Made by a program: the position numbers and the translations under genes. A stretch of DNA of 64,000 nt, from sequence record NC_047885.1. The stretch is one strand, 5' to 3'. Positions 3,235 to 64,000 of this stretch are shown piece after piece (position 1 is the stretch's first letter; each line of letters opens with the position of its first letter). Source of the DNA: Escherichia phage chee24. The notes beneath the pieces are model-generated. The model searched no databases. It was not told the origin of the DNA and saw only the letters and a program-made list of their open reading frames with translations.

Positions 3235-6024
3235 GTGTTTTCAATCCTACAAGGTCATGCAGGATTTCATCGCGATTTAGCCACAGGCAATTGGCGAGAA
3301 GTTAAAGCAGAAGATTATCTTTTTGCTAAAAGATTTTCCTCAAAGCATCCTGAAGGTAAACCAGCTTCAATGCCCTTCAAGTTTGATGTAATTGACGAAG
3401 TTGATCCTCAAACCCTAGTAGAAATGCTTCCTCTTATGAGACGTTTAACGTCTGACCCTCATATCGTTGCGGTACGAGGTCGATGTCTTGCACCTAAAAA
3501 TAATGTGCGACGTAAGAAGGGCAACTTTAATGTATCTAATCCAAGTCATATAATCGCAATGGATGTGGATGGTATTGTAGATACAGGAGGTTGTAACAAG
3601 TTTGATCTTGTTGGCATGGCGCGTCATATTATTAGGATGTTGAATAGTATTAGTGAGGATATGTTTCCTCTTGATGCAGGGTTTATTGCTCATGCATCAT
3701 CTTCGGCTGGACTAAAACCAGGTATCCGAATGCACTTAATACTAGAATCTAATGTTAAAGTTACACAGGGCCAGATCAAGTTCTTATTTACATCTATCAA
3801 CGAAAGTAGTAGACAAAAGTATGGTTTTGATATTGCCGACTTAGCTTATTACTCTTCCGTACAGCTCCACTATTTTGCAGATCCTTTATTTACTGATGGT
3901 ATAGTTGATCCGTTTAAAGCGGAGAGTGCTTCACGTCTGGTATTTGTTAAAGGCTCAAAAGTAAATTTACCTAATAATCTAGTTGACTATGAAACAACTA
4001 GAGGAGAGTTTAAAGAGGAATTCTACTCTTTACTCGATCAAATTAAAGGTAAAAAAGCTGCCTCTGATAAAGTAGAGGAAACTATCAGTGAGCTAGAAGA
4101 GGCTGATGATGGGGTATACTTACGTATTATTCCAAAGCTATATCACCGAGCGTTAGAGGATGGGGTAGATTTTGGTTGGCTAGAGAAAGAAATCCGCCCA
4201 GCTTTATCAGAATATATTGCAACTAAAGATAATAGCCGTAATATTCAGGATTATTTCAATAACGGACGGAAGCAGGCATTAAAAGCCTTTGTGAATAACT
4301 CTAAGCGTGAGATCCCTGAAGTATTAAAAGGTATCCCCCTTAAAAAGCTAGAAACTAACTCACTAGAGACCGACAACTTCTTGAAATTAAATACTGTACC
4401 ACCAGAAGGCTATATGACTTTTGTAAAAGCAAGTCTAGGTACAGGTAAAACCACGGCTGTTGTTCGTTGGCTGGATTCAGGGGTTATTAAAGGTAATTTC
4501 TTAGCAATTACCAATACTAGGGCACTAGTGTCTTCAAATGCTAAGAAATTTAGCGCAGGTCAATATGATAAATCTGTAGATATGCTCAACTTTAAACGTG
4601 GGGCTATTGATCGTATGTCCACAACCATTCACTCTTTGCATAAGTTTAAGAGTTTTATTGGTCAAATTGATGCAATCTTTATAGATGAATGTGATGCAGT
4701 AATGAATGACCTATTATTCGCCCCGGTTGTTAAGCAACGTCGCGAGTGTATTCAGGTTCTTCGAGATATTCTTGCAACTGCAAAAATAATTATATTATCT
4801 GATGGAGATATTAGTGCAGAAACAATTGAAGCATATGGTTCTTTGATTGAGTTTGATAAACCAGTTGCATTTTACAATCACCACCGTAAAATGTTATCAA
4901 AGGCTCATGCTTATGAGTTTCCTGATGAATCCAGTATTTGGGTTGCACTTCAAACATCACTAGAGATGGGTGAGAAATCTATTCTAGTATCTGATTGTGG
5001 CCCTGATGAGCTGAATGAGAAGGGTATGGCACTACGTCGTAATACTGGTGCGTTAGTTAAGGAAATCCATTCAAACTCTACCTCAGATGTGGATATTCGA
5101 CGTATTCTGGATTATACAACTAATGAGCTAATTGATCAACAAATTGATTGCTTATTATGTAGTCCATCCGTAACGAGTGGTGTTGACTTCAACTATTTTG
5201 ATAACGTATTCGTTATTACTAGAACCAGTAATCAAGCGCCAAACATGCGTTTTCAAGCAATCAGGCGCGACCGTGGTGCTCAGAACATCTATTATTTTAT
5301 TGATAAATCCACTAGTGGATTCTCCGCAGGTTCTGAACAATATAATATTGATGAAGGTTGGCTGGAGTTAGCACAGCAATTATACGCACGTCGCAGGGAG
5401 CTGGAATCTAGAAACTATACTAGTACCTTACGTTATTACTTGCTTGATCAGGGTGCAACTATTGATATTTTCAGCGAAAGCTGGGGAACTATTGAAGGTG
5501 CTGGTAAAGAGTACACAGAAGAGCGAATCAAAGCTATTCTACATTCAACCCCGGATTATTGTGCTCCACGTCATGCGGATGCGTATGAAGCTAAACTACT
5601 TCTTGTTCGCTATTATCATCTTGAGTCTATTAAAGATGTAACAGTTGAGCATGTTGAACAATATATCAAAGATAAACCGAATGATCGAGCTGCATTCTTC
5701 CATAAGATGCACGAGATGTTCTGGGAAGATATTAAGAAGTGTTCAAATATAACCATTAAACCATTCATAGAAGCTCTAAAAGGTAAGAAAAAGGACTTCT
5801 TCCTTAAAACAGGTCAGAGTGCTAACCCAAAATATGCTAGAATGTATCTTGGTATGATGGGTATCGGTAAGGATATGAACACTGAAAATATCGTAGACTG
5901 GTATAGAACCTACTGCAAAATCGAGTGTATGCCAATTCCTTATAAGTTCATGACTGATGAGGAAAAACATATGCACGATGAAGCAATGTCAGAACTAGGT
6001 GCTAGAAATGACAGTGAAGAATAA
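3235..6024 (+). CDS. replication protein: AEP primase-polymerase-like N-terminal domain fused to a P-loop helicase/ATPase (origin-binding-protein-like)
   Basis: Longest ORF begins at TTG 3157; the likelier start is GTG 3235 (AGGAG 7 nt upstream). N-terminal HIIAMDVDG (AEP DxD-like) and AHASSSAGLKPGIRMH; Walker A SLGTGKTT and Walker B IFIDECDAV mid-protein. Confidence 0.6.
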   Translation: MFSILQGHAGFHRDLATGNWREVKAEDYLFAKRFSSKHPEGKPASMPFKFDVIDEVDPQTLVEMLPLMRRLTSDPHIVAVRGRCLAPKNNVRRKKGNFNVSNPSHIIAMDVDGIVDTGGCNKFDLVGMARHIIRMLNSISEDMFPLDAGFIAHASSSAGLKPGIRMHLILESNVKVTQGQIKFLFTSINESSRQKYGFDIADLAYYSSVQLHYFADPLFTDGIVDPFKAESASRLVFVKGSKVNLPNNLVDYETTRGEFKEEFYSLLDQIKGKKAASDKVEETISELEEADDGVYLRIIPKLYHRALEDGVDFGWLEKEIRPALSEYIATKDNSRNIQDYFNNGRKQALKAFVNNSKREIPEVLKGIPLKKLETNSLETDNFLKLNTVPPEGYMTFVKASLGTGKTTAVVRWLDSGVIKGNFLAITNTRALVSSNAKKFSAGQYDKSVDMLNFKRGAIDRMSTTIHSLHKFKSFIGQIDAIFIDECDAVMNDLLFAPVVKQRRECIQVLRDILATAKIIILSDGDISAETIEAYGSLIEFDKPVAFYNHHRKMLSKAHAYEFPDESSIWVALQTSLEMGEKSILVSDCGPDELNEKGMALRRNTGALVKEIHSNSTSDVDIRRILDYTTNELIDQQIDCLLCSPSVTSGVDFNYFDNVFVITRTSNQAPNMRFQAIRRDRGAQNIYYFIDKSTSGFSAGSEQYNIDEGWLELAQQLYARRRELESRNYTSTLRYYLLDQGATIDIFSESWGTIEGAGKEYTEERIKAILHSTPDYCAPRHADAYEAKLLLVRYYHLESIKDVTVEHVEQYIKDKPNDRAAFFHKMHEMFWEDIKKCSNITIKPFIEALKGKKKDFFLKTGQSANPKYARMYLGMMGIGKDMNTENIVDWYRTYCKIECMPIPYKFMTDEEKHMHDEAMSELGARNDSEE

Positions 6025-8750: not shown

Positions 8751-9714
8751 TGTAAAAGGCTTTATTAAGCGTTGTCAAGAAGCATATTATCAGGGTATGT
8801 CTTTAATCTCTGATGAGGAGTATGATTGCCTGGTAAAACGCTTCCCGTTAGAAGAAGAGATCGGGCCTAAGGGTGATATTCCACATCTGTATCGTATGTA
8901 TTCTTTACAGAAAGTTTATTATAATCGTGGAGATAAACCCCCGTTTAACCCGTTAGGTCAAGTAGAAACTGATAAGTTAGATGGTTGTGCAATTTCTCTG
9001 CTATATATTAATGGCGAATTTGTTCAAGCACTAACTCGTGGTAACGGTATTCTGGGAAATGATGTCACAAGCAACGTAAGATTGCTGAACATCCCTAAAA
9101 AGATTTCCCAAAAAGTACCTACTCAAATCACTGGTGAAGTTCTAATTACAAAAGAAGTAGAAAATAAACGTAATTTTGCCTCTGGCGCTATTAACCTCAA
9201 AGATAGTGATGATTTCGTACAACGCATTGGAGAAGGCGGTTTAATCTTTGTTGCTTACGGTATCCAATGTTCTGCTGAATCTGTAGGTATTACAGAAGCA
9301 TATTTAAAAGATATGCTTTGGCTAGAGAATGAGAACTTCTTAACAGTTGTTAATGTGCGTTCCTTTTTTAAATGGATTCCGACGGACGGTAAAGTTGTTC
9401 GTATTAATGACAACAACAAATTCTTCCGTGAAGGCTGGACTAATAAATTCCCTCGTGGAGCATTCGCCATTAAAGAGGATGAAGAAGGCGAGATTACAAC
9501 TCTTACTAAAGTTGAATGGCAGGTAGGGGCTTCTGGTAAAGTAACTCCAGTCGGTTATTTTGAACCAGTAATTATTGATGATGCTACAATTGTTAAAGCG
9601 ACTCTTAATAACGTTGATTATATTAACTCTCTTGATCTAGAGATCGGTTGCCAGATTCGAGTGATTCGTGCTGGTGGTGTAATCCCGTGCATAGTAGAGC
9701 GAGTATACGATTAA
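8740..9714 (+). CDS. NAD-dependent DNA ligase, N-terminal subunit (adenylation and OB domains)
   Basis: Block KLDGCAISLLYINGEFVQALTRGNGILGNDVTSNVR aligns with the bacterial LigA KxDG adenylation motif region; OB-fold-like C-terminus (IRVIRAGGVIPCIVE). Confidence 0.85.
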   Translation: MMNNVKGFIKRCQEAYYQGMSLISDEEYDCLVKRFPLEEEIGPKGDIPHLYRMYSLQKVYYNRGDKPPFNPLGQVETDKLDGCAISLLYINGEFVQALTRGNGILGNDVTSNVRLLNIPKKISQKVPTQITGEVLITKEVENKRNFASGAINLKDSDDFVQRIGEGGLIFVAYGIQCSAESVGITEAYLKDMLWLENENFLTVVNVRSFFKWIPTDGKVVRINDNNKFFREGWTNKFPRGAFAIKEDEEGEITTLTKVEWQVGASGKVTPVGYFEPVIIDDATIVKATLNNVDYINSLDLEIGCQIRVIRAGGVIPCIVERVYD

Positions 9715-9764
9715 TACATAACCCTTTGCTACCCATCTACCATATCGGAATTATAAAGTGGTTA

Positions 9765-9793
9765 TTGACATTTCCGCCGCTTAGGTATATACT
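9765..9793 (+). promoter_or_regulatory. consensus-like sigma70 promoter (TTGACA-17-TATACT) inside the ligase inter-subunit spacer
   Basis: TTGACA TTTCCGCCGCTTAGGTA TATACT; no substantial ORF follows before the next promoter. Confidence 0.55.
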
Positions 9794-9857
9794 ATTATCA
9801 TTCAGTTGAGGGATAGAAAGTTATGGCGAGGGTAAGCAAAGTTAGTTAAAATTGTAG

Positions 9858-9886
9858 TTGCTAAATGCTTAAATACTTGCTATAAT
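9858..9886 (+). promoter_or_regulatory. sigma70-type promoter (TTGCTA-17-TATAAT) for the ligase C-terminal subunit
   Basis: TTGCTA AATGCTTAAATACTTGC TATAAT then ATTTATATAAATTGATAAGGAAG. Confidence 0.6.
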
Positions 9887-9916
9887 ATTTATATAAATTG
9901 ATAAGGAAGAAATTTG

Positions 9917-10696
9917 ATGAAAATCGAAATTCCAACACAATGTCCCTCTTGTGGTTCTAAGCTAGATCTTGTCAACGGACAATTATTCTGTCGTAATAAG
10001 TCCAACTGTCCAGCGCAATCAAGTAAGTTAATTGAGAACTTCTGTACAAAAATGAAGTTAAAGGGCTTTGGCCCAAAAACTATTGAGAAGCTGGAGCTGA
10101 CGAAGATTTCAGAACTATTTTACCTAACCGAAGAAGATTTGGTTAGAGCCGTGGGTAGCAAGGTTGCCGCTAAGTTAATTAGCGAATTAAATAATAAAGT
10201 TCGCGGAGACATTGACTTTGGTTCAGTTCTCGGTTCTTTAGGAATCCCTCTAATCGGAGAGGTTGCAGCAAAGAAATTGTCCCAAAATTGCACCAGTTTT
10301 CAAGATGTGAGAGCTGATGGCAGAGCTGGAGAAAATTATAAAGCCTGGCTAAATTCCCCACAAGGCAAGGATGTTATCGAATTACCGTGGAAATTCACAA
10401 CTGGTATTAAAGGTGCTAAAGCTGAGGTCATCATCACTGATGGTCTAGTAGCCCAACCAAACGGAATAACGGTATGTATTACCGGATCTTTGCAAGATTT
10501 TGCAAATAGAACGGATGCAACAAACTATTTAGAAGGTCTAGGATATACGGTTAAGAAATCCGTTACCAAAGACGTCAAATACCTAATCTGTGAGGATGAA
10601 TCGAAGCGTTCTTCCTCATCTTATAAGAAAGCCGAAACGAATGGGATAGAAATCCTGTCGATTAAAGAACTATTGGAGAAAAATAATAATGTCTAA
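9917..10696 (+). CDS. NAD-dependent DNA ligase, C-terminal subunit (Zn finger, HhH, BRCT)
   Basis: CPSCGSKLDLVNGQLFCRNKSNCPAQ matches the LigA Cys4 zinc finger; GFGPKTIEKL helix-hairpin-helix; BRCT-like C-terminus (ITGSL...ILSIKELLE). ATG at 9917 with RBS AAGGAAG. Confidence 0.8.
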   Translation: MKIEIPTQCPSCGSKLDLVNGQLFCRNKSNCPAQSSKLIENFCTKMKLKGFGPKTIEKLELTKISELFYLTEEDLVRAVGSKVAAKLISELNNKVRGDIDFGSVLGSLGIPLIGEVAAKKLSQNCTSFQDVRADGRAGENYKAWLNSPQGKDVIELPWKFTTGIKGAKAEVIITDGLVAQPNGITVCITGSLQDFANRTDATNYLEGLGYTVKKSVTKDVKYLICEDESKRSSSSYKKAETNGIEILSIKELLEKNNNV

Positions 10697-11456
10697 ACTG
10701 AACTGGAACGTAGAAGGTGTAACCGAGTCTCTGAAAGCAAAAGCCACTGCTCTGGGTGTTGCTGTAATCTCTCAAGAACAAGTAGCTGCTATCGCTGCTG
10801 AACTGGCTGCTGAAACTGGCAAAGACGTTACCGCTCGCTCTGTTGGCTCTAAGCTGCGTAAAGAAGGTTTCGAAGTACAGAAAGCTAACGAAGTACAGAA
10901 ATCCCCATGGACTCCTGAGCAGGAAGCTGAACTGGTTGATTTCCTGAACGCTCATGCTGGTCAGTATACTTATGCTGAAATCGCTGCTGCTGTAGCTGGT
11001 GGTCAGTTCGGTGCTAAGCAGGTACAGGGTAAAATCTTGAGTCTGGAAATGACCGCATCTGTTAAGCCGACCGAAAAAGCTGCTGCTGTTCGTTCCTTCA
11101 CTCCGGATGAAGAAACTGACTTTGTTAATCAGGTTGTTGCTGGAGCTACTATTGAAGCTATCGCTGCTCACTTCGGTCGTAATATCAAGCAGATCCGTGG
11201 TAAAGCTCTGAGTCTGCTTCGTGAAGGTCGTATCGCTGCTATGCCGGTACAGGAAACTTCAAGTGCTAAAACTCGTGAAGATCTGTTAGAAGGTCTGGAT
11301 CTGGCTAACATGACTGTTGCTGAGATCGCTGAGAAAACTGGTAAGTCTGAGCGCGGTGTTAAATCTATGCTGTCTCGTCGTGGTCTGGTTGCTAAGGACT
11401 ATGATGGTGCCGCTAAGCGTGCTAAACTGGATGCAAAAGCTGCGGCTGCTGAATAA
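10689..11456 (+). CDS. hypothetical early protein with four internal HTH-like repeats
   Basis: 255 aa; repeats of about 55 aa (AAIAAELAAETGKDVTARSVGSKLRKEG / YAEIAAAVAGGQFGAKQVQGKILSL / TIEAIAAHFGRNIKQIRGKALSLLREG / TVAEIAEKTGKSERGVKSMLSRRG); host-optimised codon usage. Confidence 0.5.
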   Translation: MSKLNWNVEGVTESLKAKATALGVAVISQEQVAAIAAELAAETGKDVTARSVGSKLRKEGFEVQKANEVQKSPWTPEQEAELVDFLNAHAGQYTYAEIAAAVAGGQFGAKQVQGKILSLEMTASVKPTEKAAAVRSFTPDEETDFVNQVVAGATIEAIAAHFGRNIKQIRGKALSLLREGRIAAMPVQETSSAKTREDLLEGLDLANMTVAEIAEKTGKSERGVKSMLSRRGLVAKDYDGAAKRAKLDAKAAAAE

Positions 11457-11538: not shown

Positions 11539-13011
11539 ATGACCTTGTTTAACGTGCAAGCTGTAGTGTTGAAGATGCTTCTAGCTTCCGAACAGAAGCA
11601 AATAGCATTGGAAACATTCTCAAAACTGCATAAAGATCATTTTAATGACGCTTTCTCCTCAATTTACCAAGCCGTCCAGAATTATTATAAAAAATATAAC
11701 ACAATGCCGTCCATTGACGCACTGATGCTTGAGGCTAATAGGAACGCCCGCCTTTCTCAAGCTCTAGTCGTTTTAGCTAACACTCAAATTCCAGAAGTTA
11801 GCATGGAACAGGCACTTGAAGTCCTAGAAGCCGAGTATACACAGGATTTATTCCTGAAGCTTCTAGAAACAGACGTGCTTCAAGATTTAACAATGCTGGA
11901 TCAGGGAGAAATTCTTAACCGAGTTGCCTCCCTTCACTTAAAATTAGAAGAGAAAGTAACGAATACTGGAAAAGTATTCAACGCAGATAACATGCGTATT
12001 TTCCAGAGAGAAGAAGATACCAAACTGAACTTAATCGCTCTTGGTATTTGTAATGAGTTCGACGCTCAAATTGGTTTAGCTCGCACAGAAACGTTACTGC
12101 TTGGTGGTTGGCGTGGTACTGGTAAATCCATTATCTGTTCAAACATACAGGTTCAGCAATATTTGAATGGAGATATTGCTCCATACTTCTCAATTGAGAT
12201 GAAAGAACATGAAGTATTTAGACGTAATCTAGCTATGTTAGCTGGTGTATCAGCACTAGCAATGCGTAATAATACTCTAGAAGGTGCAGCTCTGTTGAGA
12301 TTAGCCAGAACTAGAGCTAGGATGTTTAACGGTGGTGAAGAGCTTTTCGATAACTTCGTTAAACAGTACACAATGGCTAAGATGAGTGATTTCTACGATA
12401 TGGAAAGTAAGCTAATAGAAGGGTATGAATTACATACTCCTATGATTATTGTTTATGATCCTGAGCTGTCTATTACAACAGTTGACGTAGAATTAAATAA
12501 ATTAGTTGCTAGATATGGGGATAAAGTTACAGTAGCTTTACTGGACTATATTAACCAAACCCGACTTCCAGATTCTAAAACCATTGATATGTATGACTGG
12601 AAAGAACAGATGGTTGTTAGCTCGTCTTTCAAATCTATCTGCCAGAAACATAACGTGGCTGGTGTAGCTCCTTACCAGATTGATCAAGATGGTAGAACAC
12701 GTATGTCAAAGGGGATTCTTGATTCCGCAGACATGGCTGCTAATCTTAATGCTGCAAAAGCGGATAATGGTCAAGGTGCTATTATGTTTGACTTCGTTAA
12801 GACTCGTTCTTCTGATAGCGTGAAGTTTATGCCTAAAATGAACTGGGAAACCCTGCGGATGGATAACACTACCAACCTAGCAATGGAAGATATATCTCAA
12901 ATGGAAGCTGAGTTCGTTATCCCTATTGAGAAGGATAAGCCGGCTCAATCTAAACGTGCTAAGAAAGACAAAGCTGAAAATTCAACAGGTGAACAGGCCA
13001 GCGATATATGA
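11539..13011 (+). CDS. putative replicative DNA helicase (RecA-fold ATPase)
   Basis: Start moved to ATG 11539 (RBS AAAGGAG); the track start at 11488 lies inside the upstream terminator loop. P-loop GGWRGTGKS; position immediately before the primase. Confidence 0.55.
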   Translation: MTLFNVQAVVLKMLLASEQKQIALETFSKLHKDHFNDAFSSIYQAVQNYYKKYNTMPSIDALMLEANRNARLSQALVVLANTQIPEVSMEQALEVLEAEYTQDLFLKLLETDVLQDLTMLDQGEILNRVASLHLKLEEKVTNTGKVFNADNMRIFQREEDTKLNLIALGICNEFDAQIGLARTETLLLGGWRGTGKSIICSNIQVQQYLNGDIAPYFSIEMKEHEVFRRNLAMLAGVSALAMRNNTLEGAALLRLARTRARMFNGGEELFDNFVKQYTMAKMSDFYDMESKLIEGYELHTPMIIVYDPELSITTVDVELNKLVARYGDKVTVALLDYINQTRLPDSKTIDMYDWKEQMVVSSSFKSICQKHNVAGVAPYQIDQDGRTRMSKGILDSADMAANLNAAKADNGQGAIMFDFVKTRSSDSVKFMPKMNWETLRMDNTTNLAMEDISQMEAEFVIPIEKDKPAQSKRAKKDKAENSTGEQASDI

Positions 13012-20652: not shown

Positions 20653-22471
20653 GACACTAAAATTTAGTAACGTTATGTCTTACGGTAAGGACATCGTAAT
20701 TCATTTCGATAAGAATCCAGTTACTCAACTAATTGGGGGCAATGGGCTAGGGAAATCCACCATCGCTACGGTTATCGAGGAATTGTTTTATAACAAGAAC
20801 TCTCGAGGTATCAAGAAGGATGCATTATTCTCTTGGAATGCCCCTAAGAAAGAATACGATATGCACGCTTACTTTTCAAAAGATGATGATGAGTATGAGC
20901 TGCATAAAGTTGTCAAGTCAACTGCTAAAGTAACGTTGATTAAGAACGGGGAAGATATTAGCGGGCATACTGCAACCCAAACATACAAGATGATTGAAGA
21001 GATTATGGGTGGTGACTTTCAAACATTCACCAAACTGATTTATCAATCAGTGGGTTCCAACCTAGACTTTCTAAAAGCAACGGATGCAACACGTAAAGCG
21101 TTTCTTGTTAACCTGTTTAACCAGGAACAGTACAAAGAAATGTCTGAGACTATCAAAGCTGATCGTAAAGAAGTGGCAGCCACATTAAGTAATCTGCAGG
21201 GCCAAATGGCTGTAATTACGAAAATCCTTAATGGAAAGAATAATCTGGGAACTTTGCAGGAACCTGTAGAAGTACCGGAGTTTGATGAAGAGCCATTAGC
21301 ACAAGAACTTACTGAATCGAAAATTAAGGCGGCATTAGCCAAGTCTCAAGAGGCTAATATTACTAAATTGCGTAATTTGGACAAAGCTGTACAAGTTGCC
21401 GAACAATCTTTCGAGCCTTTCAAAAATTTGCCCGCGCCCACTGACCAAAACGAAGAGATCTCAAGTGTTACGCGTGACCTAACGATTGTGACCTCACGTG
21501 CGGGCGAAGTTAAGAAACGTTATCAGAAGTTCAAGCAAGAGGCTTCAAATACTGAATGCCCTACTTGTGGTACTCATCTGGATACAACTGCTGCTCAAAA
21601 AGCAATGGATATGGCTAGAATAGAATATGATCCTCTGTTCAAAGAGAAGCAATCTCTTGAAGCTAAGCTAGAACAGTTGAAGAAAGAACAACTTGAGTAC
21701 GTTGCGTATACTAGAGCAAAGGATGCTTTGGATAAAGCGGTGGTAGCTAGAGACGAGTTCAAAAATTCAATGAGTGATGCTTCTTTTGAAGAACTCAATG
21801 TGCAAATCCTACAGGTGCAAATCCGACAATTAGAACAGGCAATCGCTGATGGACGTTCTAAGGTTGCAATTGCCAAAGAGCATAATGCAAATGTCGAATT
21901 AGCTAATGCAAAATATAAAGCGAAACTAGAACAGATTGAGAAAGCTGAAGCAGAAATGTCTGAGATTACTTCCAAACTGAATGGAGTATCAGAAGCTGTA
22001 GCTGATCTTGATATTCTAATTGCTGCTTTGAAAAATCTGGTGGGATATAAATTAGAGCATAGTGTGAAAGTATTTGAAGAACTAATTAATAAATACCTTT
22101 CCATTATGACTGGAGGTAAATTCGCACTTGGATTTGAACTTGATGAAACAAAATTACAAGTAGTAATCTTCAATGATGGAAACCGTACCAGTATGGAGAA
22201 CTGCTCTACTGGTCAGCAAAGTCGAATTAATTTAGCAACATTGTTAGCGATTCGTATGCTGTTAACATCTATTAGTAAAGTTAATATTAATCTTCTATTC
22301 CTTGATGAAGTAATTAGCTTTATTGATACGAAAGGACTTGATACTCTCGTTGAACTATTAAATGAGGAAGAAAGTCTAAATTCTATCATTGTTTCTCATG
22401 GGCATACGCATCCATTAGCTCATAAGATTACTGTCAAAAAAGATGCAGAAGGATTTTCCTACTTAGAATAA
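20633..22471 (+). CDS. SbcC/Rad50-like ATPase
   Basis: ATG at 20633 overlapping the SbcD-like 3' end; Walker A GGNGLGKST; long coiled-coil middle with CPTCG zinc hook; C-terminal LLFLDEV Walker B/D-loop. Confidence 0.8.
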   Translation: MSKIIIKTLKFSNVMSYGKDIVIHFDKNPVTQLIGGNGLGKSTIATVIEELFYNKNSRGIKKDALFSWNAPKKEYDMHAYFSKDDDEYELHKVVKSTAKVTLIKNGEDISGHTATQTYKMIEEIMGGDFQTFTKLIYQSVGSNLDFLKATDATRKAFLVNLFNQEQYKEMSETIKADRKEVAATLSNLQGQMAVITKILNGKNNLGTLQEPVEVPEFDEEPLAQELTESKIKAALAKSQEANITKLRNLDKAVQVAEQSFEPFKNLPAPTDQNEEISSVTRDLTIVTSRAGEVKKRYQKFKQEASNTECPTCGTHLDTTAAQKAMDMARIEYDPLFKEKQSLEAKLEQLKKEQLEYVAYTRAKDALDKAVVARDEFKNSMSDASFEELNVQILQVQIRQLEQAIADGRSKVAIAKEHNANVELANAKYKAKLEQIEKAEAEMSEITSKLNGVSEAVADLDILIAALKNLVGYKLEHSVKVFEELINKYLSIMTGGKFALGFELDETKLQVVIFNDGNRTSMENCSTGQQSRINLATLLAIRMLLTSISKVNINLLFLDEVISFIDTKGLDTLVELLNEEESLNSIIVSHGHTHPLAHKITVKKDAEGFSYLE

Positions 22472-49137: not shown

Positions 49138-50454
49138 TTATTTACCACGGGAAATAGAGTAAATTCCATAGCGGAGCGCATCACAAAGGTGAGAATTAGC
49201 ATCATGACGTGGTTTTTCACGTGATAATTTCTCTTCACCTTCTTGGAAATCCCACTTATAGTTCTGCAATGCATGGATTAATGAGGAACATGAAGCATCT
49301 ACAATAATCTTGCCCTGCTGGAATAGCGCTTGCAGACATGCTAGGCCATCTAGGACAGATTTTTTAGCTGGAGCTGATGCAATTTCATGCTCGTAGGCTA
49401 AATCCTGGCGGAACTGAGCGGCGGCAGAGTCAACAAAAATACGATCAACTTTGTAACGATCTATACAATGCTGAATATAAGCAGCATGCTGGGCTGTAGT
49501 TTTTTCCGCCTGCTGGTACTCTTCTAATACATAGTAAGTATCCGTATCATAGTGATATTTAATAGTAAGAACTGCTGTAGGATCACGATAACCAACGTCA
49601 ATACCAAGCAACGTTTCGAATGCTTCATCATCTTTAAAGAAGTGACGCATACCTTTGAGGTCTTTAACATGATCTATAGCATTGAAGGTATCAAATATCT
49701 GTCCTTCAAATACAGAGAAGTCAGCCTCGTATTCTTGGCGGAAGTAGTTTTTACTAACTGTACGACGTGCTTCCTCAATATCATTCAAGTCGGCACGTGG
49801 GTTATCACGATATGTACCATGAATAGATACCCAGTTAGGCAACGTATCATCAAATCCGTAGGCGTAAAACTCTTTAAACCAGTTACCTCCACGAGGGGTA
49901 GAAATAAATAGAGCCTTAGAATTAGGTTTATCTAGAGTAGGACGCAGCTGAACCCTGAAGGCATCACCACCCACATCAGAAATTGCCGCCTCGTCAAAAA
50001 TGATAAAGTCATATGAACGTCCAACCGCGGAGTCAGCCTGAGCCGCGGAAGCTAGTTTAAATAGAGAACCATTAGCTAACTCAATCTCTTTATCTTTAGC
50101 GTTTTCACGTTCGGTTTGTAGGCCGTACTTCTTAATAAGACCACGAATCTGAGACCATCCGATATTGGCCAGTGAGTAGTTAGGGGCAACTACTAGTACC
50201 TTCACATTAGGTTCCAGCAATTTTAGGAACCCAAGTGTATACGCTATAAAAGATTTACCTACACGGCGTGATACACACGCCGTTACAAAACGATGTCTAG
50301 GGTCTTCTAGGGCATTGATAATTGCTATTTGAGGGCCATTAGGCGTGATACCCTCTTGTGCTAGTATTCCGGAAACAGGTAGACGAAAGAAACGTTTGTC
50401 TATTCCGAAATCAATAACATCTACTGTGTTAACATAGGGTCTTGACACTTCCAT
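49138..50454 (-). CDS. terminase large subunit
   Basis: 438 aa; N-terminal ATPase P-loop-like VSRRVGKSF and Walker B-like FIIFDEAA; C-terminal nuclease-like acidic residues. Confidence 0.8.
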   Translation of the reverse strand: MEVSRPYVNTVDVIDFGIDKRFFRLPVSGILAQEGITPNGPQIAIINALEDPRHRFVTACVSRRVGKSFIAYTLGFLKLLEPNVKVLVVAPNYSLANIGWSQIRGLIKKYGLQTERENAKDKEIELANGSLFKLASAAQADSAVGRSYDFIIFDEAAISDVGGDAFRVQLRPTLDKPNSKALFISTPRGGNWFKEFYAYGFDDTLPNWVSIHGTYRDNPRADLNDIEEARRTVSKNYFRQEYEADFSVFEGQIFDTFNAIDHVKDLKGMRHFFKDDEAFETLLGIDVGYRDPTAVLTIKYHYDTDTYYVLEEYQQAEKTTAQHAAYIQHCIDRYKVDRIFVDSAAAQFRQDLAYEHEIASAPAKKSVLDGLACLQALFQQGKIIVDASCSSLIHALQNYKWDFQEGEEKLSREKPRHDANSHLCDALRYGIYSISRGK

Positions 50455-50936
50455 TACTTCTTACCTCCAGTAGCTAGGGAAGTAATTAAGTCCATGTAGT
50501 TTTGATCCCCAGCTCCAGCAATAATGTTATTCTGGATATTGGTCTGATTAGCAGGAGCACGGACAGCAGCTTTAGCTTTCTCTAACTCTACCATCATCTT
50601 CATTTCTTCCATCTTCATTTTGTGAGCCTTCCAGAGAATATCCATAATATCCTGGTCAGAACCCATGCCAGTTTCTTCTAGCTCCTCTAGCTTACGCTTA
50701 ATAACTTCATCCAGAACACCAAATAAACGATCTCTATTACGGAACCCACTCTCCATAAAAATATCATTTAAGTAGTTCTTAACTTCACTACGATTCATAA
50801 TATCTCGGAAAGCAATTTCAGACATTCCAAGACTACGTGCTGCGGCAGGCACATCGCTGCCACACTGTAAATAAGCTTCAATCACATCCATCCCTTCAGG
50901 GGACATAAGATCTGGTACTAATACATCATTTGCCAT
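50454..50936 (-). CDS. terminase small subunit (putative)
   Basis: 160 aa immediately upstream of the large terminase with overlapping stop/start; HTH-like [17 protein letters not shown]. Confidence 0.5.
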
Positions 50937-54048: not shown

Positions 54049-54783
54049 TTACGCAACTTTTAATTTCTCAATATATTGTTGCGGGCTGCAACTATATTCT
54101 GCGCGTTCTTCTTCGGTCATACCTTCCCAACATAATTGCAGGCGGTCGGCTAGGAACTGATAATCATTATCATCCTCAAGAGATTCATCAATAAAGGTTT
54201 CACCTATCAATGTCACGCCGATTGATAGAATATCGTTAACGGCTTGTGCGTCCAGCGTTTTAAATCCGTATGACGCTGCCGCTGATAGCACGCCTTTATG
54301 ATCATCAATCATTGTAAAATCAGCGTTCGGATATAATTGTTTGAATAGCCCAAAATAGTAACTTTTATAAACTGCGTCTTTGCTGTGGTATATCTCGCTA
54401 ACTTTATCAGCCTCAAAATATTTGTGTAGTGTATCGCGGGAAAATACACGGATATTACTATCACCACGACCGCGCAAGCCTTGTTTGCGCAAATAATAAT
54501 AGTCCGACTTGCTCATCAGTCGAGCGGTGCAAATAATGTTTAATGTATTTGCGTCATTCATGCACTGGCGCATATATGTAACAAGGGGCAATAAAGTATC
54601 TTGCATTATTAAATCATGTTTGCAGGCTTCATTTTTATACTTATTTAAATCTAAATTGCCCTCGCTATCAAAGCAAGGCGCTACACGATGGAAAGAATTA
54701 ATGATAGTGCCGTCCAGATCCCAAATCATGACGCGGGAAATATGCGGGAAATTACGGGTAATATTCATTTTAACTTGATTCAT
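54049..54783 (-). CDS. HAD-superfamily phosphatase, candidate 5'-deoxyribonucleotidase (T5 Dmp-like)
   Basis: 244 aa; HAD motif I IWDLDGTIINS; pre-early position next to the A1-like gene. Specific substrate is inferred from T5 knowledge. Confidence 0.5.
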   Translation of the reverse strand: MNQVKMNITRNFPHISRVMIWDLDGTIINSFHRVAPCFDSEGNLDLNKYKNEACKHDLIMQDTLLPLVTYMRQCMNDANTLNIICTARLMSKSDYYYLRKQGLRGRGDSNIRVFSRDTLHKYFEADKVSEIYHSKDAVYKSYYFGLFKQLYPNADFTMIDDHKGVLSAAASYGFKTLDAQAVNDILSIGVTLIGETFIDESLEDDNDYQFLADRLQLCWEGMTEEERAEYSCSPQQYIEKLKVA

Positions 54784-55605: not shown

Positions 55606-57270
55606 TTACGCGAAAAATTTACCGTTTTTAAAGTCGATCAAAGTGCGCTGACCGTTTGCATAGGTAATAACATGCGTTTGCGTCCAGCTTGACGCGCCAA
55701 CGTTGTAACCCATGTCCAGACTACCAGACACGCCAGCGGTGTATACGCCGCCGTAAATGCTGGCGGTATGAGTGTGCCCCGTGTTTAATTTGCCCAATTT
55801 CTTAAACTGTTTCGGATTGCCACGGCTCCCGTTTATGCCATTGTGACCGTGTACGCCGCATTCAATACCTGCAATCTTGAAAGATTGATCAGTGGTCAGA
55901 AAAATGGCGTTAAATTCACAACCTGCAACCTTGCGCAGCGCATAATCTAGCACGTTGAAAGTATCGTCATGATCACCGATTGCCGCGTAAATTGCAGCAT
56001 TTAGGCGGTGATATAGTTCCGCGTTTGCTGGATCGTCTTTAATGTTAGCATTACGATCATCTAACCAGCGGGATAGCGCCAGATCATGATTAGACTCAAC
56101 AATGATTGTTTGCGAAAAATCGCGCTCCATTGACTCCAGCACGCGACCGGTATCGATAAGATCATCCAGAACTTTATCACGTCCGGCGGCATACTGTTTT
56201 GCTAGGAATACACCCGAAGCGCGGTTGTGATGGTTGCGTGATGTAAAGTCGTGAACGTCATGGATAAACTGATATTTTGGTTTAAGAATATCAAGCAAGC
56301 TATTTTCGCCAGCCCATGACGCAACGGCGCAAGCGTCATCCAATTTTTCGGCGTGTACGTCGCCATATTGTAAACCTAAAACGTGCCCCGTTGTTTCATA
56401 ACATCCGGCGGGAGTGGCGCAAACATTCAGATCATAAAACACCCCGCTTTCGTCCATTGTTTCAAGCTGGCGCACAAAAAACTCACCGTCTTCGTCGAAC
56501 TCAACAATCAGCGCCCCGAAATTATGCAGTGCTTCCGCTTTCTGTCCTGCTTTCTGCTGAATGTAGTTTTTAAGCGTTGCCGTTCCGGTTGAATACATAC
56601 GGCGCACAATTTCACCTTTTAAAGCTGGAACGCTTTCGGCGGTAATTTTTGCCGCTCCAATTGCCAGACCTTCGATATTTAAAGCCGTTGCAGTTTCTGC
56701 AAATCCAGAAAGCGGATAATCTGCGGTTGGCAAAACATTAATTTCAGCCATGAAAGCAAAGCGGCGGTTATTTAAAAACACGTTTTTGCTGCAAATATAT
56801 TTATCGAACGCGGAATCATATTTGATTCCGTCGGCGCCCTCGCCATTTTGAAAACCGTTTTTATTATAAATATACTTGCTAACTAGCAAATCAGCACCAA
56901 TAAATTGGGCGTATTGTTCAAGCGAGGCTAAAAAGTTTTTATGAGGGAACGTATTATTCTGAATCGATGTAATAATAAAGCGTTTACCCTGCTTTACTTC
57001 CCATTGTTCAACCGTGCTAGAAACAATCCCCGCCGCTTCTGGGCGCTCATCGTTTTTAATGGCTTTTGCTACTTTCGCCGCTTTCGGTTTCGCTGGTTTA
57101 TTTGCTTCCAGCCAATCGCAAATTGCGGTGGAGTGTTTTGTTGTATCATAAACCGCTTTAGAAATATCGTCGCACACTTCCAGCTTAGTAGCGCGCAGGC
57201 GTTTACCGTAGAAATTGAAATCAGCGGCCATTTTCAGGATAACGGTTTGTTTTTCTGCGGAAATAACCAT
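55606..57270 (-). CDS. A1-like pre-early protein with calcineurin-like metallophosphatase motifs
   Basis: 554 aa; metallophosphoesterase motifs LQYGDVHAE, IVESNHD and GHTHTASIYGG; size and context match T5 A1 as I remember it. Confidence 0.65.
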   Translation of the reverse strand: MVISAEKQTVILKMAADFNFYGKRLRATKLEVCDDISKAVYDTTKHSTAICDWLEANKPAKPKAAKVAKAIKNDERPEAAGIVSSTVEQWEVKQGKRFIITSIQNNTFPHKNFLASLEQYAQFIGADLLVSKYIYNKNGFQNGEGADGIKYDSAFDKYICSKNVFLNNRRFAFMAEINVLPTADYPLSGFAETATALNIEGLAIGAAKITAESVPALKGEIVRRMYSTGTATLKNYIQQKAGQKAEALHNFGALIVEFDEDGEFFVRQLETMDESGVFYDLNVCATPAGCYETTGHVLGLQYGDVHAEKLDDACAVASWAGENSLLDILKPKYQFIHDVHDFTSRNHHNRASGVFLAKQYAAGRDKVLDDLIDTGRVLESMERDFSQTIIVESNHDLALSRWLDDRNANIKDDPANAELYHRLNAAIYAAIGDHDDTFNVLDYALRKVAGCEFNAIFLTTDQSFKIAGIECGVHGHNGINGSRGNPKQFKKLGKLNTGHTHTASIYGGVYTAGVSGSLDMGYNVGASSWTQTHVITYANGQRTLIDFKNGKFFA

Positions 57271-57623: not shown

Positions 57624-58031
57624 TTATTCGCCTGCGGCTTGTTTTACTTCATCGGCAACGCCTAACAGTTGCGCCACGGCGTCCAGCGTTTCTAATTTTG
57701 CGCTTTCCAGCGATGCCAGATCGTCGGCGTCTTTGATAATGCCGGAATCAATAGCATGTTTAGCGATAACGCGCACATAGTGAGCCTTACGAATTGAACT
57801 GCCGCCGCCAACTTTGCGCGGCTTATCGCTTTTCTGGTACGCTTTTGCGCTGGTCAATTTTGAGCGAACAGACACGGGAGAAGCCGCACCAACTGTTTTT
57901 GCGATCTCTTTCAGGCCGTCGCTGTTGGCGAACTCCAAGCCGTTTTCATTGATCAACTGTTGATACATGGTAACAGCCTGCTGGGTGTTTTCTTCATTCC
58001 AAGAGAATTTTGCGGTTTTAGCGTTAGTCAT
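57624..58031 (-). CDS. hypothetical pre-early protein (A2 position in T5-like phages)
   Basis: 135 aa immediately upstream (- strand) of the A1-like gene; GC-rich codon usage; identification as A2 is by synteny only. Confidence 0.45.
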   Translation of the reverse strand: MTNAKTAKFSWNEENTQQAVTMYQQLINENGLEFANSDGLKEIAKTVGAASPVSVRSKLTSAKAYQKSDKPRKVGGGSSIRKAHYVRVIAKHAIDSGIIKDADDLASLESAKLETLDAVAQLLGVADEVKQAAGE

Positions 58032-59841: not shown

Positions 59842-59861
59842 CTACTGTATATTTATACAGG
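59842..59861. promoter_or_regulatory. LexA (SOS) box-like palindrome
   Basis: TACTGTATATTTATACAGGG fits CTGT-N8-ACAG with AT-rich spacer; immediately downstream of the DnaA boxes. Confidence 0.45.
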
Positions 59862-62945: not shown

Positions 62946-63140
62946 ATGAGCAATAAAATTGTTGTAACCAAAATCAGTACAATGGTTGACGTTTTTTATG
63001 TGCCCGATACGCCGGAAAACCGGCAAGCGGTCGAGCGTGGCGAGTATGATAAAGTGATTTATGATCACGATGGTTACTATCAACATTTGGTGGATTCCTA
63101 CGGGGAGGGGGAAAAAATCACGCATCGACTACCAGACTAG
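62946..63140 (+). CDS. hypothetical protein (64 aa)
   Basis: RBS GGGAG; last ORF before the repeat-rich non-coding region. Confidence 0.45.
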   Translation: MSNKIVVTKISTMVDVFYVPDTPENRQAVERGEYDKVIYDHDGYYQHLVDSYGEGEKITHRLPD

Positions 63141-63180
63141 TAATCACGGGGGCGCAACTACCAGGGAGTGCCCCCAATTC

Positions 63181-63205
63181 TCAAATGAGAATGATTCTCA
63201 TTTGA
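63181..63205. repeat. 25-bp near-perfect palindrome TCAAATGAGAATGATTCTCATTTGA
   Basis: 12-bp arms around one central base; arm sequence AATGAGAAT recurs in the tandem repeats at 63520-63715 and in the element at 53955-54000. Confidence 0.6.
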
Positions 63206-63397
63206 CCGCGCCCGCGATGGTTAGCCTGCTAATGATTAGGGTGTTACGTGTCGCCTTGTGTGATCGTTAGCAGGCTAACTAATTTTTAAGCCTCCTCCAA
63301 TTTTGCCCTTGTTTTAGTATCCCCATCAAAATTAAACGCGTTAGAATGCGATTCAGGACGTTTTAGGCCTATATTAGAATTATTCACTACATAGGAG

Positions 63398-63417
63398 TAC
63401 TGTATATTTATACAGTA
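63398..63417. promoter_or_regulatory. LexA (SOS) box-like palindrome
   Basis: TACTGTATATTTATACAGTA: one mismatch to the E. coli LexA consensus TACTGTATATATATACAGTA as I recall it. Confidence 0.45.
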
Positions 63418-63425
63418 GAATAACC

Positions 63426-63508
63426 TGGGGATAAGTCTGTGGATAACGCCTCAAAATGGCTAGGATTCTGTCAAGTCAAATCGTGCTGTTGATAAGTCTG
63501 TGGATAAC
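63426..63508 (-). promoter_or_regulatory. DnaA boxes in inverted orientation
   Basis: Two copies of GATAAGTCTGTGGATAAC (reverse complement contains TTATCCACA) at about 63429 and 63491; the 18-mer TTATCCACAGACTTATCC is shared with 59813-59830 in opposite orientation. Confidence 0.45.
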
Positions 63509-63519
63509 TTAAATAACAG

Positions 63520-63715
63520 TGTTTCTCACTTCCATTTTTAAATGCGAATCATTATCATTTGCATTTCACTGTCTAACTGATAATCATTTCACTTTTTAAA
63601 TGAGAATCATTTCACTTTTTGAATAGTTCTCATTCCGCTTTTTAAATGAGAATAATTATCATTCGCATTTCACTTTTTAAATGAGATTGATTCTCATTAT
63701 CATTCGCATTTAGGC
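63520..63715. repeat. tandem direct repeats (core CTTTTTAAATGAGAAT) interleaved with ATTATCATTCGCATTTCACT units
   Basis: Five core copies at about 63535, 63593, 63616 (diverged), 63639 and 63673; three copies of the second unit. Confidence 0.6.
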
Positions 63716-63740
63716 GAGCAGGGCAATTGCCCTGCGCTTT

Positions 63741-63964
63741 TGTGCAAATCCGACATTGCTCCACGGGTGTTACGTGCGGGCGTGTATGTGCGAATCCGAC
63801 AATTTTTGGTAGTGTGCGAATCCGACCCGAAAAATTTTTATAGTGTGCAAATCCGACAATGAATTTTCCCAAAAACTCCAGCAATCTCGAACTGCGTTCG
63901 AATCCTGTGGAATTAGCTAGAATATGTGCAAATCCGACATGTGTTGAGATGTGCGAATCCGACA
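63741..63964 (+). repeat. iteron-like array: six direct copies of TGTGCRAATCCGACA
   Basis: Copies at about 63741, 63787, 63813, 63844, 63925 and 63950, all in the same orientation with irregular spacing; array reaches the window end. Confidence 0.65.
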
Positions 63965-64000
63965 AGATTTTTGTGACTTCGATTGGAGGGTGTGTGATTG

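Follow-up and report, generated by a model that had tools for sequence, protein, structure and literature searches.

The inner end of the terminal repeat of bacteriophage T5 carries a set of short direct repeats that was catalogued long ago. In the GenBank entry AY587007, six of these are annotated as 'direct repeat D copy 1-6' (DRD) at 9672-9895, copies 7-9 are placed past the end of the terminal repeat (10139), and copies 11-12 are located within exo2. The same entry annotates 'major single-stranded nick 1, 7.9%' at 9661-9668, just ahead of DRD copy 1. In Davison's account, 'nine DRD repeats' make up one of the three main repeat classes of Repeat Region 3 (bioRxiv 2020, 10.1101/866236), and Davison's reviews name DRD and assign no function to it (10.1101/866236). 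How T5 injection stops and restarts has been an open question since 1968, and the mechanism is still called poorly understood in papers to 2026. Published work locates the T5 injection stop signal (iss) in the DnaA-box inverted repeats and the DRE repeats, left of the ~7.9% shear point; the published candidate is the element IRD'-spacer-IRC' (10.1101/866236). Second-step transfer requires A2, an essential protein that binds DNA at a target yet to be defined (10.1101/866236; 10.64898/2026.04.02.716235). The T5 nicks follow the consensus R/GCGCRGG, a heptamer that is insufficient alone to specify them (PMC3517423). Lastly, the T5 'origin-binding protein' D2 has been characterized as a bipolar helicase (PMC3632103).

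The 64-kb stretch of DNA analyzed here, referred to as the window, contains the same repeats. A motif scan of the window located six plus-strand copies of TGTGCRAATCCGAC(A/C) at 63741-63964, a density far above chance. The repeat is a 15-mer, TGTGC(A/G)AATCCGAC(A/C), and every copy lies on the same strand. At two or fewer mismatches the window contains eight matches (the six array copies plus two internal matches in exo2/D13) versus 0.20 expected, and none of 100 shuffles gave eight. Copy 1 (63741-63755, TGTGCAAATCCGACA) corresponds to T5 'direct repeat D copy 1' (AY587007 9672-9686). Supported likewise by the scan and the T5 annotation are copy 2 (63787-63801, TGTGCGAATCCGACA) and copy 4 (63844-63858, TGTGCAAATCCGACA). 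Copy 3 (63813-63827, TGTGCGAATCCGACC) has one mismatch (...GACC), and T5 copy 3 carries the identical variant. Copy 5 (63925-63939, TGTGCAAATCCGACA) lies exactly 10 bp further left in many relatives, with copies 4 and 6 fixed, and copy 6 (63950-63964, TGTGCGAATCCGACA) is the last copy of the terminal repeat. The start-to-start spacings are 46, 26, 31, 81, and 25 bp, identical to those in T5. Opposite-strand matches at three or fewer mismatches were found neither in the 120.6-kb genome nor in 40 related loci. The six repeats are therefore DRD copies 1-6, a feature already known and named in T5.

The first-pass annotation, made from the sequence of the window, had described six 15-bp repeats in one orientation with irregular 25-81 bp spacing that no coding feature explains, and the scan and the spacing count bear this description out. 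Its reading was partly right: the assignment to a T5-like terminal region, the non-coding character, and the signature of a protein-binding array all stand, while its proposals of origin iterons or an injection-stop signal are weak, and the existing T5 name was missed. A minus-strand ORF does overlie the array at 63642-63965 (P27_0168, and P27_0015 in the left repeat). It is annotated in pork27, absent from the AY587007 annotation of T5, and broken into other frames and lengths among close relatives, and was rejected as a gene. The ORF is spurious, a product of translated repeats with a recurring VGFAH. A structured RNA was rejected as well; Rfam returned sub-threshold noise only at the array. 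The two internal matches form a tandem pair on the plus strand at 21799-21828 (starts 21799 and 21814, pork27 78420 and 78435), equivalent to 'direct repeat D copies 11 and 12' of T5. This pair is probably a coincidence of coiled-coil codons: it encodes VQILQ-VQIRQ, shows no extra DNA-level constraint (170 of the 571 other 30-nt segments in the gene are at least as conserved), and has no counterpart in distant homologs, which led us to reject it as a second functional site.

To place the array in its genome, we compared positions 63100-64000 of the window with sequenced phages. This segment is 100% identical to the T5-like phages pork27, pork29, saus47N, saus111K, and poul124, where it falls within the annotated left terminal repeat, and it matches 440 phage records in total and no plasmid. 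The window represents the last 64 kb of a Tequintavirus of the pork27/pork29 group and is collinear with pork27 from position 56622. Position 64000 is the final base of the deposited genome and the end of the right terminal repeat, and the two 9967-bp repeats are identical. In T5, edits introduced in the terminal repeats end up at both genome ends (PMC8108384). The window end is thus not an arbitrary cut and the six-copy cluster is complete, which corrects the earlier claim that the array is truncated there and its extent unknown; T5 and the left-repeat copy supply that extent. Counting onward in the left-repeat copy, as had been suggested, yields the six copies followed by two or three more ~343 bp on, in unique DNA. 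In pork27 these further copies start at 10260 and 10295, with a one-mismatch copy at 12131.

The deposited ends of this group deserve a comment. The right ends of eight independent two-repeat genomes fall 242-244 bp past copy 6, at the conserved sequence ...TTGACAAGTGAAAATTTCTGTGGCTC followed, across the cut, by TAAAAAC, ~85 bp before copy 7. In pork27 the T5-type right-end site is intact at 10174 (...CTGTGGCTC), 207 bp past the annotated repeat end (9967), and the left end starts ~106 bp inside that of T5; the homolog of the T5 left end is found ~130 bp ahead of the annotated right-repeat start (window 54034). Because of the intact right-end site and the displaced left end, the deposited termini of the pork27/pork29 group are probably imprecise. 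The real right repeat likely extends ~207 bp past position 64000, with no further DRD copy in that extension. Just beyond the second DRD cluster, on its right and in unique DNA, we also noted a cluster of four AACCGCC(C) motifs on one strand (positions 4288-4350 of locus L001, pork27 10353-10416). A similar cluster occurs in the Klebsiella, My1, Serratia, and Aeromonas lineages, and T5 has a copy at 36 nt from its left end. Considered as a motif common to both cut sites, AACCGCC is represented near the left end only by that one copy in T5 and one mismatched copy in pork27. Beyond it, on the minus strand, is a perfect sigma-70 consensus promoter (L001 4674-4703, pork27 10740-10769) with TTGACA, an 18-nt spacer, TATAAT, and an upstream TG. 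It points leftward from unique DNA to the DRD clusters and the repeat end and has no obvious downstream gene.

What is new here is the persistence of the array across the Demerecviridae, in phages of Klebsiella, Serratia, Pectobacterium, Vibrio, and Aeromonas, as judged by sequence comparison. The first-pass annotation had tied its reading to conservation of the repeats in close relatives, and we find them conserved family-wide. In a set of 14 close relatives, conservation of the entire 1.3-kb non-coding block far exceeds that of the genes on either side, and within it the 15-mers (0.97) are slightly more conserved than the spacers (0.86-0.89). At greater distance the contrast sharpens. In Pectobacterium phage My1 (L041) and in L061 the spacers cannot be aligned, yet the DRD core is kept in the same orientation, in two clusters that flank a G-rich tract. 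The core is likewise retained between divergent spacers in Klebsiella vB_Kpn24-P3, Serratia Kamaji, and the Vibrio phages Pontus, D260, D7, and phi3. The universal core is GTGC[AG]AA[AT]NC[GT]A; TA usually stands in front of it and an A/T tract comes after, and the 3' half of the motif is lineage-specific. Aeromonas phage AhSzq-1 has AGTA[CG]WWWTTCGA[CT]A at the same position (the Aeromonas-type variant AGTACTAATTCGACA), in which the 5' half-motif is changed.

The geometry of the array is also maintained. Throughout the family the array is one-stranded, and its start is usually within 10 bp of a nick-1 consensus site. The span from first to last copy is 209 bp in 19 of 30 distinct arrays, and the second cluster lies at 342-344 bp. 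Copy 5 is found at either +184 or +174 (spacings 81/25 or 71/35, window 63859-63949), with the distance from copy 4 to copy 6 constant at 106 bp; this 10-bp jump of one turn is a compensated shift that preserves the helical face. The order of modules is the same across the family: a CTGT-N8-ACAG palindrome with DnaA boxes, genus-specific repeats, a GC hairpin with the nick consensus, the DRD cluster, a G-rich tract with the cut site, and a second cluster. Strict orientation, a motif kept while spacers diverge, and fixed geometry are what would be expected of a protein-binding site. Outside the family, a search of 185,579 genomes returned 18 loci, all of which proved to be tandem or coding repeats with no relation to DRD, or contaminant contigs of T5-like DNA. 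Two contigs (L131, SABI01000336.1, and L146, RZZU01000077.1) are T5-like DNA of this region binned in Spirochaetia and Clostridia MAGs, that is, bin contamination.

The array has well-defined neighbors. The nick-1 (7.9%/99.5%) consensus site is located on the minus strand at 63731-63738 (A/GCGCAGG, matching R/GCGCRGG), 3 bp before DRD copy 1. The site beside the array is conserved in the T5-like, L061, Klebsiella, Serratia, Pontus, phi3, and Aeromonas lineages, and T5 nick 1 is annotated at the homologous place. A GC-rich hairpin, GCAGGGCAATTGCCCTGC, followed by GCTTTTG (63718-63735, plus strand; T5 palindrome J), abuts the array and is terminator-like for rightward pre-early transcription. 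Nick consensus sites occur at 8.0, 18.9, 33.2, 64.7, and 99.8% of the genome. The four unique major nick sites (CCYGCGCY on the plus strand; pork27 9698, 22750, 39987, and 78052, of which the first and last correspond to window 63731 and 21431; also L003-L005) all have (G/A)TTACG 26-29 nt downstream, and the element is missing at the 76% consensus site, which does not count among the classical major nicks. (G/A)TTACG may be the 'additional sequence' that the nicking system is reported to require (PMC3517423). At nick 1 the second part of such a possible bipartite signal would be GGGTGTTACGTG (63765-63776, plus strand), between DRD copies 1 and 2.

Directly upstream of the array is an AT-rich (28% GC) module of 23-nt-periodic repeats with Fur-box-like 7-1-7 palindromes, on the plus strand at 63523-63712, which corresponds to the T5 DRC/DRE repeats. 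The palindromes (TGAGAATnATTCTCA versus the consensus TGATAATnATTATCA) cluster in these repeats at 63181-63205 and 63527-63712, and a perfect TGATAATCATTATCA is found near the start of the right terminal repeat (54158-54172). At three or fewer mismatches the window contains 26 Fur-box-like matches versus 9.3 expected. The Vibrio and Aeromonas lineages have different repeats at the DRC/DRE position. Fur-regulated receptors such as FhuA are used by many T5-like phages. Further upstream, the plus-strand palindrome CTGTATATTTATACAG (63400-63415) and two consensus DnaA boxes TGTGGATAA (63438-63446 and 63499-63507, plus strand) are parts of the T5 IRD'-spacer-IRC' element (63400-63507). CTGTATATTTATACAG fits the LexA SOS-box form CTGT-N8-ACAG and occurs twice, identically, at 59845-59860 and 63400-63415, each time beside DnaA boxes, in T5 repeat regions 2 and 3. 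One or two copies are kept in the Vibrio, Aeromonas, and Serratia lineages that we examined. None of the papers searched links phage T5 with an SOS box, and LexA is unmentioned in Davison 2020.

In T5, the first DRD copy begins at 9672. Shearing is estimated to fall ~50 bp further left (~9618, ~7.9%), which puts the array on the distal side by an offset that is within the measurement error of the old shear mapping; the array as a whole covers 7.94-8.13% of the genome. The text of Davison's paper puts the shear point in 'DRD2' and a figure legend puts it in DRE2 (10.1101/866236). By coordinates the point falls in direct repeat C copy 4, and DRE2 is therefore the correct reading. The suggestion of the first-pass annotation that the array is the injection-stop or first-step-transfer signal is weak, because the DRD copies begin to the right of the shear point and the published iss lies to its left. 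Since the copies start right of the stop point, they are more likely involved after the stop.

Our current hypothesis, which we hold tentatively and which leads the alternatives in our ranking, is that the six repeats may be binding sites of one phage-encoded protein, most likely A2 with A1, and form a loading array that restarts DNA transfer. A sequence-specific phage protein would build a nucleoprotein complex of fixed geometry at the inner end of the terminal repeat, immediately past the point at which first-step transfer stops. The pre-early protein A2, made from the first 8% of the genome, would load onto the oriented array 3 bp past nick 1, and loading would either ratchet the next few hundred base pairs into the cell or position A1 at the nick. 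Either event could restart second-step transfer, and the copy of the array in the right terminal repeat, which is the one in this window, would be a passenger of terminal redundancy. Put more broadly, DRD could possibly be the missing cis element for the restart half of T5 two-step transfer, an ancient platform for A2 (with A1), common to all Demerecviridae, that would co-evolve with the putative A2 recognition helix. What the comparisons show directly is the array itself, oriented and of fixed geometry, conserved through the family, co-evolving with the phage lineage, and placed beside nick 1 and a terminator-like hairpin. We infer the identity of the binder and the mechanism from several lines of evidence. 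The array is positioned 3 bp after the nick-1 consensus and directly after the terminator-like hairpin. The reader of the repeats is probably phage-encoded and not a universal host factor, because the motif changes in one phage lineage (Aeromonas) while the host-factor boxes stay. The candidate reader, A2, is encoded on the minus strand at 57624-58031 as a pre-early DNA-binding protein (phrog_1725, 'DNA binding protein').

A structure model of A2 (pLDDT 86.5) contains two helical domains and a basic linker. Within helix 52-61, an R-x-K-L pattern is invariant in eight lineages, and the substitutions S57Q and S61Q are unique to Aeromonas; no other lineage has altered the 5' half-motif. Since residue 57 can otherwise be S, T, or G with the motif unchanged, the co-variation between A2 and the motif rests on that one lineage. 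A Foldseek search of the A2 model against the PDB was not significant, with HTH, Myb, and TetR-like folds as the best hits (E ~0.8-1), and the use of helix 52-61 as the recognition helix is for this reason an assumption. We had considered a lineage without A2 as a discriminating test; the Aeromonas phages do carry A2, merely a divergent one. Three further observations weigh against A2. A2 is reported to form a dimer, for which a palindrome would be a more natural target than the direct, asymmetric DRD repeats, and upstream there is a conserved CTGT-N8-ACAG palindrome. During the pause the array may not yet have reached the cytoplasm, provided that the shear point has been estimated accurately. 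Finally, the right-end cut site, itself conserved, has DRD repeats on both sides, and judged by position a packaging role fits this arrangement equally well.

That packaging role is the next explanation to be weighed. The two DRD clusters would flank the right-end cut site, bind the small terminase subunit (TerS), and place the large subunit for the terminal cut. The layout resembles that of P1 pac, SPP1 pacL/pacR, and lambda cosB. The conserved right end of the eight genomes lies between the two clusters, the cut-site sequence and the two-cluster layout are shared with the Klebsiella/L061 lineage, and in phi3 the annotated repeat end falls inside the DRD array. The TerS-family gene (phrog_3802; window 50454-50936, minus strand) carries the sciB label, which is that of a single-chain-interruption (nick) locus, in T5 (AY692264; M62847, assigned by map position), and nick 1 abuts copy 1. 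If the label is correct, nicking would be linked to the packaging machinery. On the other hand, TerS has a conserved core and a predicted N-terminal HTH that has diverged in each lineage, even among T5, Klebsiella, and Pontus, whose motif is the same. A2 is thus favored over TerS, circumstantially, because the A2 helix is conserved alongside the motif and the TerS HTH is not. In a whole-genome scan at three or fewer mismatches, no DRD copy was found near the left-end cut site, and all DRD copies of the Pontus deposit are inside the terminal repeat. In addition, 243 bp is a long distance between a cos or pac site and its cut, and the direction of T5 packaging is disputed, with the left end packed first according to one report (PMC3517423). 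We therefore consider TerS binding unlikely, though it ranks second.

A host protein could also read the repeats. A conserved host factor bound at DRD would be part of an injection-stop complex together with the neighboring DnaA, LexA-like, and Fur-like boxes, modules that resemble host-factor sites (10.1101/866236). The core GTGC[AG]AA is kept across phages of Enterobacterales and Vibrionales whose proteins are only ~40% identical, and TGTGCAAAT fits the relaxed DnaA-box consensus TGTGNAWAA at eight of nine positions. Against this, position 5 of the repeat (C) is invariant, although it is N in the DnaA box, and A and G alternate at a position critical for the DnaA box. Six further positions are conserved within each lineage, with a lineage-specific 3' half, and the stop point is estimated to lie left of the whole array. 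An array of DnaA boxes proper (TT(A/T)TNCACA) was rejected: every copy has one or two mismatches, 13-15 nt are conserved, and the Aeromonas repeats lack CACA. Because the Aeromonas lineage changes the 5' half-motif from GTGC to GTA[CG] and yet keeps canonical TGTGGATAA boxes and the LexA-like site, the DRD repeats are not DnaA boxes. We know of no host site that matches the DRD motif, and we regard a host-factor roadblock as somewhat less probable than terminase recognition.

Origin iterons, the other proposal of the first-pass annotation, are not supported and seem improbable in the classical form. In this view the DnaA boxes, the AT-rich DNA, and the DRD repeats would make up an origin of the plasmid type, with a phage initiator, for instance the D2 helicase, as its reader. 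The order of modules (DnaA boxes, the 28%-GC block at 63520-63715, direct repeats) resembles that of theta-type origins, and the DRD core GTGCGAA is the reverse complement of the herpes UL9 box core. T5 has no defined origin sequences, and its proposed initiator is D2, in which an HTH is predicted (PMC3632103). However, the spacings are irregular and their helical phases scattered, as opposed to ~22 bp and helically phased, and, going by annotation, the flanks contain no recognizable initiator gene, only genes for hypothetical proteins. D2 aligns with UL9 only in the helicase core (UL9 residues 81-246), and a UL9-like DNA-binding domain was undetectable in D2 even with a family profile. Electron microscopy places the T5 origins internally (10.1101/866236; PMC3632103), and a site in the terminal repeat would mean two origins per genome. 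The D2 gene itself (window ~3235-6024, plus strand) carries the annotation 'DNA primase C' in pork27, other records call it 'replication origin binding protein', and the pork27 start (821 aa) is probably too far downstream because homologs are ~929 aa. A plasmid or phage-plasmid origin, which the DnaA boxes, AT-rich block, and repeats had suggested, was rejected in view of the T5-like locus and the lack of a PLSDB match.

The weakest proposal, that the repeats direct the sci nickase to nick 1, has in its favor the nick-1 consensus 3 bp from copy 1 in most lineages examined and the insufficiency of the heptamer (PMC3517423), but is very improbable given that DRD lies near nick 1 only, that nothing DRD-like occurs within ~100 bp of the remaining three unique major nick sites (best at least 6 mismatches), that (G/A)TTACG fits all four sites as an alternative shared element, and that nick-less mutants are viable (PMC3517423).

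Taken together, these comparisons narrow the role of DRD: it is neither coding sequence nor a general nick signal, and its copies are not DnaA boxes. An A2(-A1) loading array is placed first, followed by terminase recognition, a host-factor roadblock, origin iterons, and a nick signal, with the remainder left to some other role. If A2 reads DRD, the restart step becomes mechanistically testable; if TerS does, the first packaging signal would be defined for a phage with long terminal repeats.

Comparison with better-known arrays places the locus. P1 pac hexamers, SPP1 pacL/pacR boxes, and the R sites of lambda cosB are terminase recognition arrays of short, oriented, irregularly spaced repeats with A/T tracts, on one or both sides of a specific terminase cut, as DRD is; they differ in that here motif and TerS HTH show no co-variation, 85-243 bp separate the repeats from the cut, and the left end has no equivalent. 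Theta-type iterons (P1 oriR, pSC101, R6K) are similarly one-orientation direct repeats beside DnaA boxes and an AT-rich block, whereas the DRD array lacks regular two-turn spacing and an adjacent rep gene recognizable from annotation and has no match in 72,556 plasmids. The DnaA-box arrays of oriC have a relaxed consensus that the first 9 nt of the DRD repeat fit at eight of nine positions, and the copies have the same orientation as the upstream consensus boxes, but in DRD 13-15 nt are conserved, and in Aeromonas true DnaA boxes remain beside repeats without the CACA core. The closest system is T5 DRD itself. The 15-mer, the copy-3 variant, and the spacings are the same, as are the neighbors (palindrome J, nick 1, the DRC/DRE repeats, and the DnaA-box inverted repeat), and both genomes have extra copies past the repeat end and a tandem pair within exo2. 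Here two copies past the repeat end lie within three mismatches, while T5 annotates three, and the deposited terminal repeat ends 207 bp short of the T5-type end, probably through imprecision of the deposit. Between T5 DRD and this array there is no essential difference.
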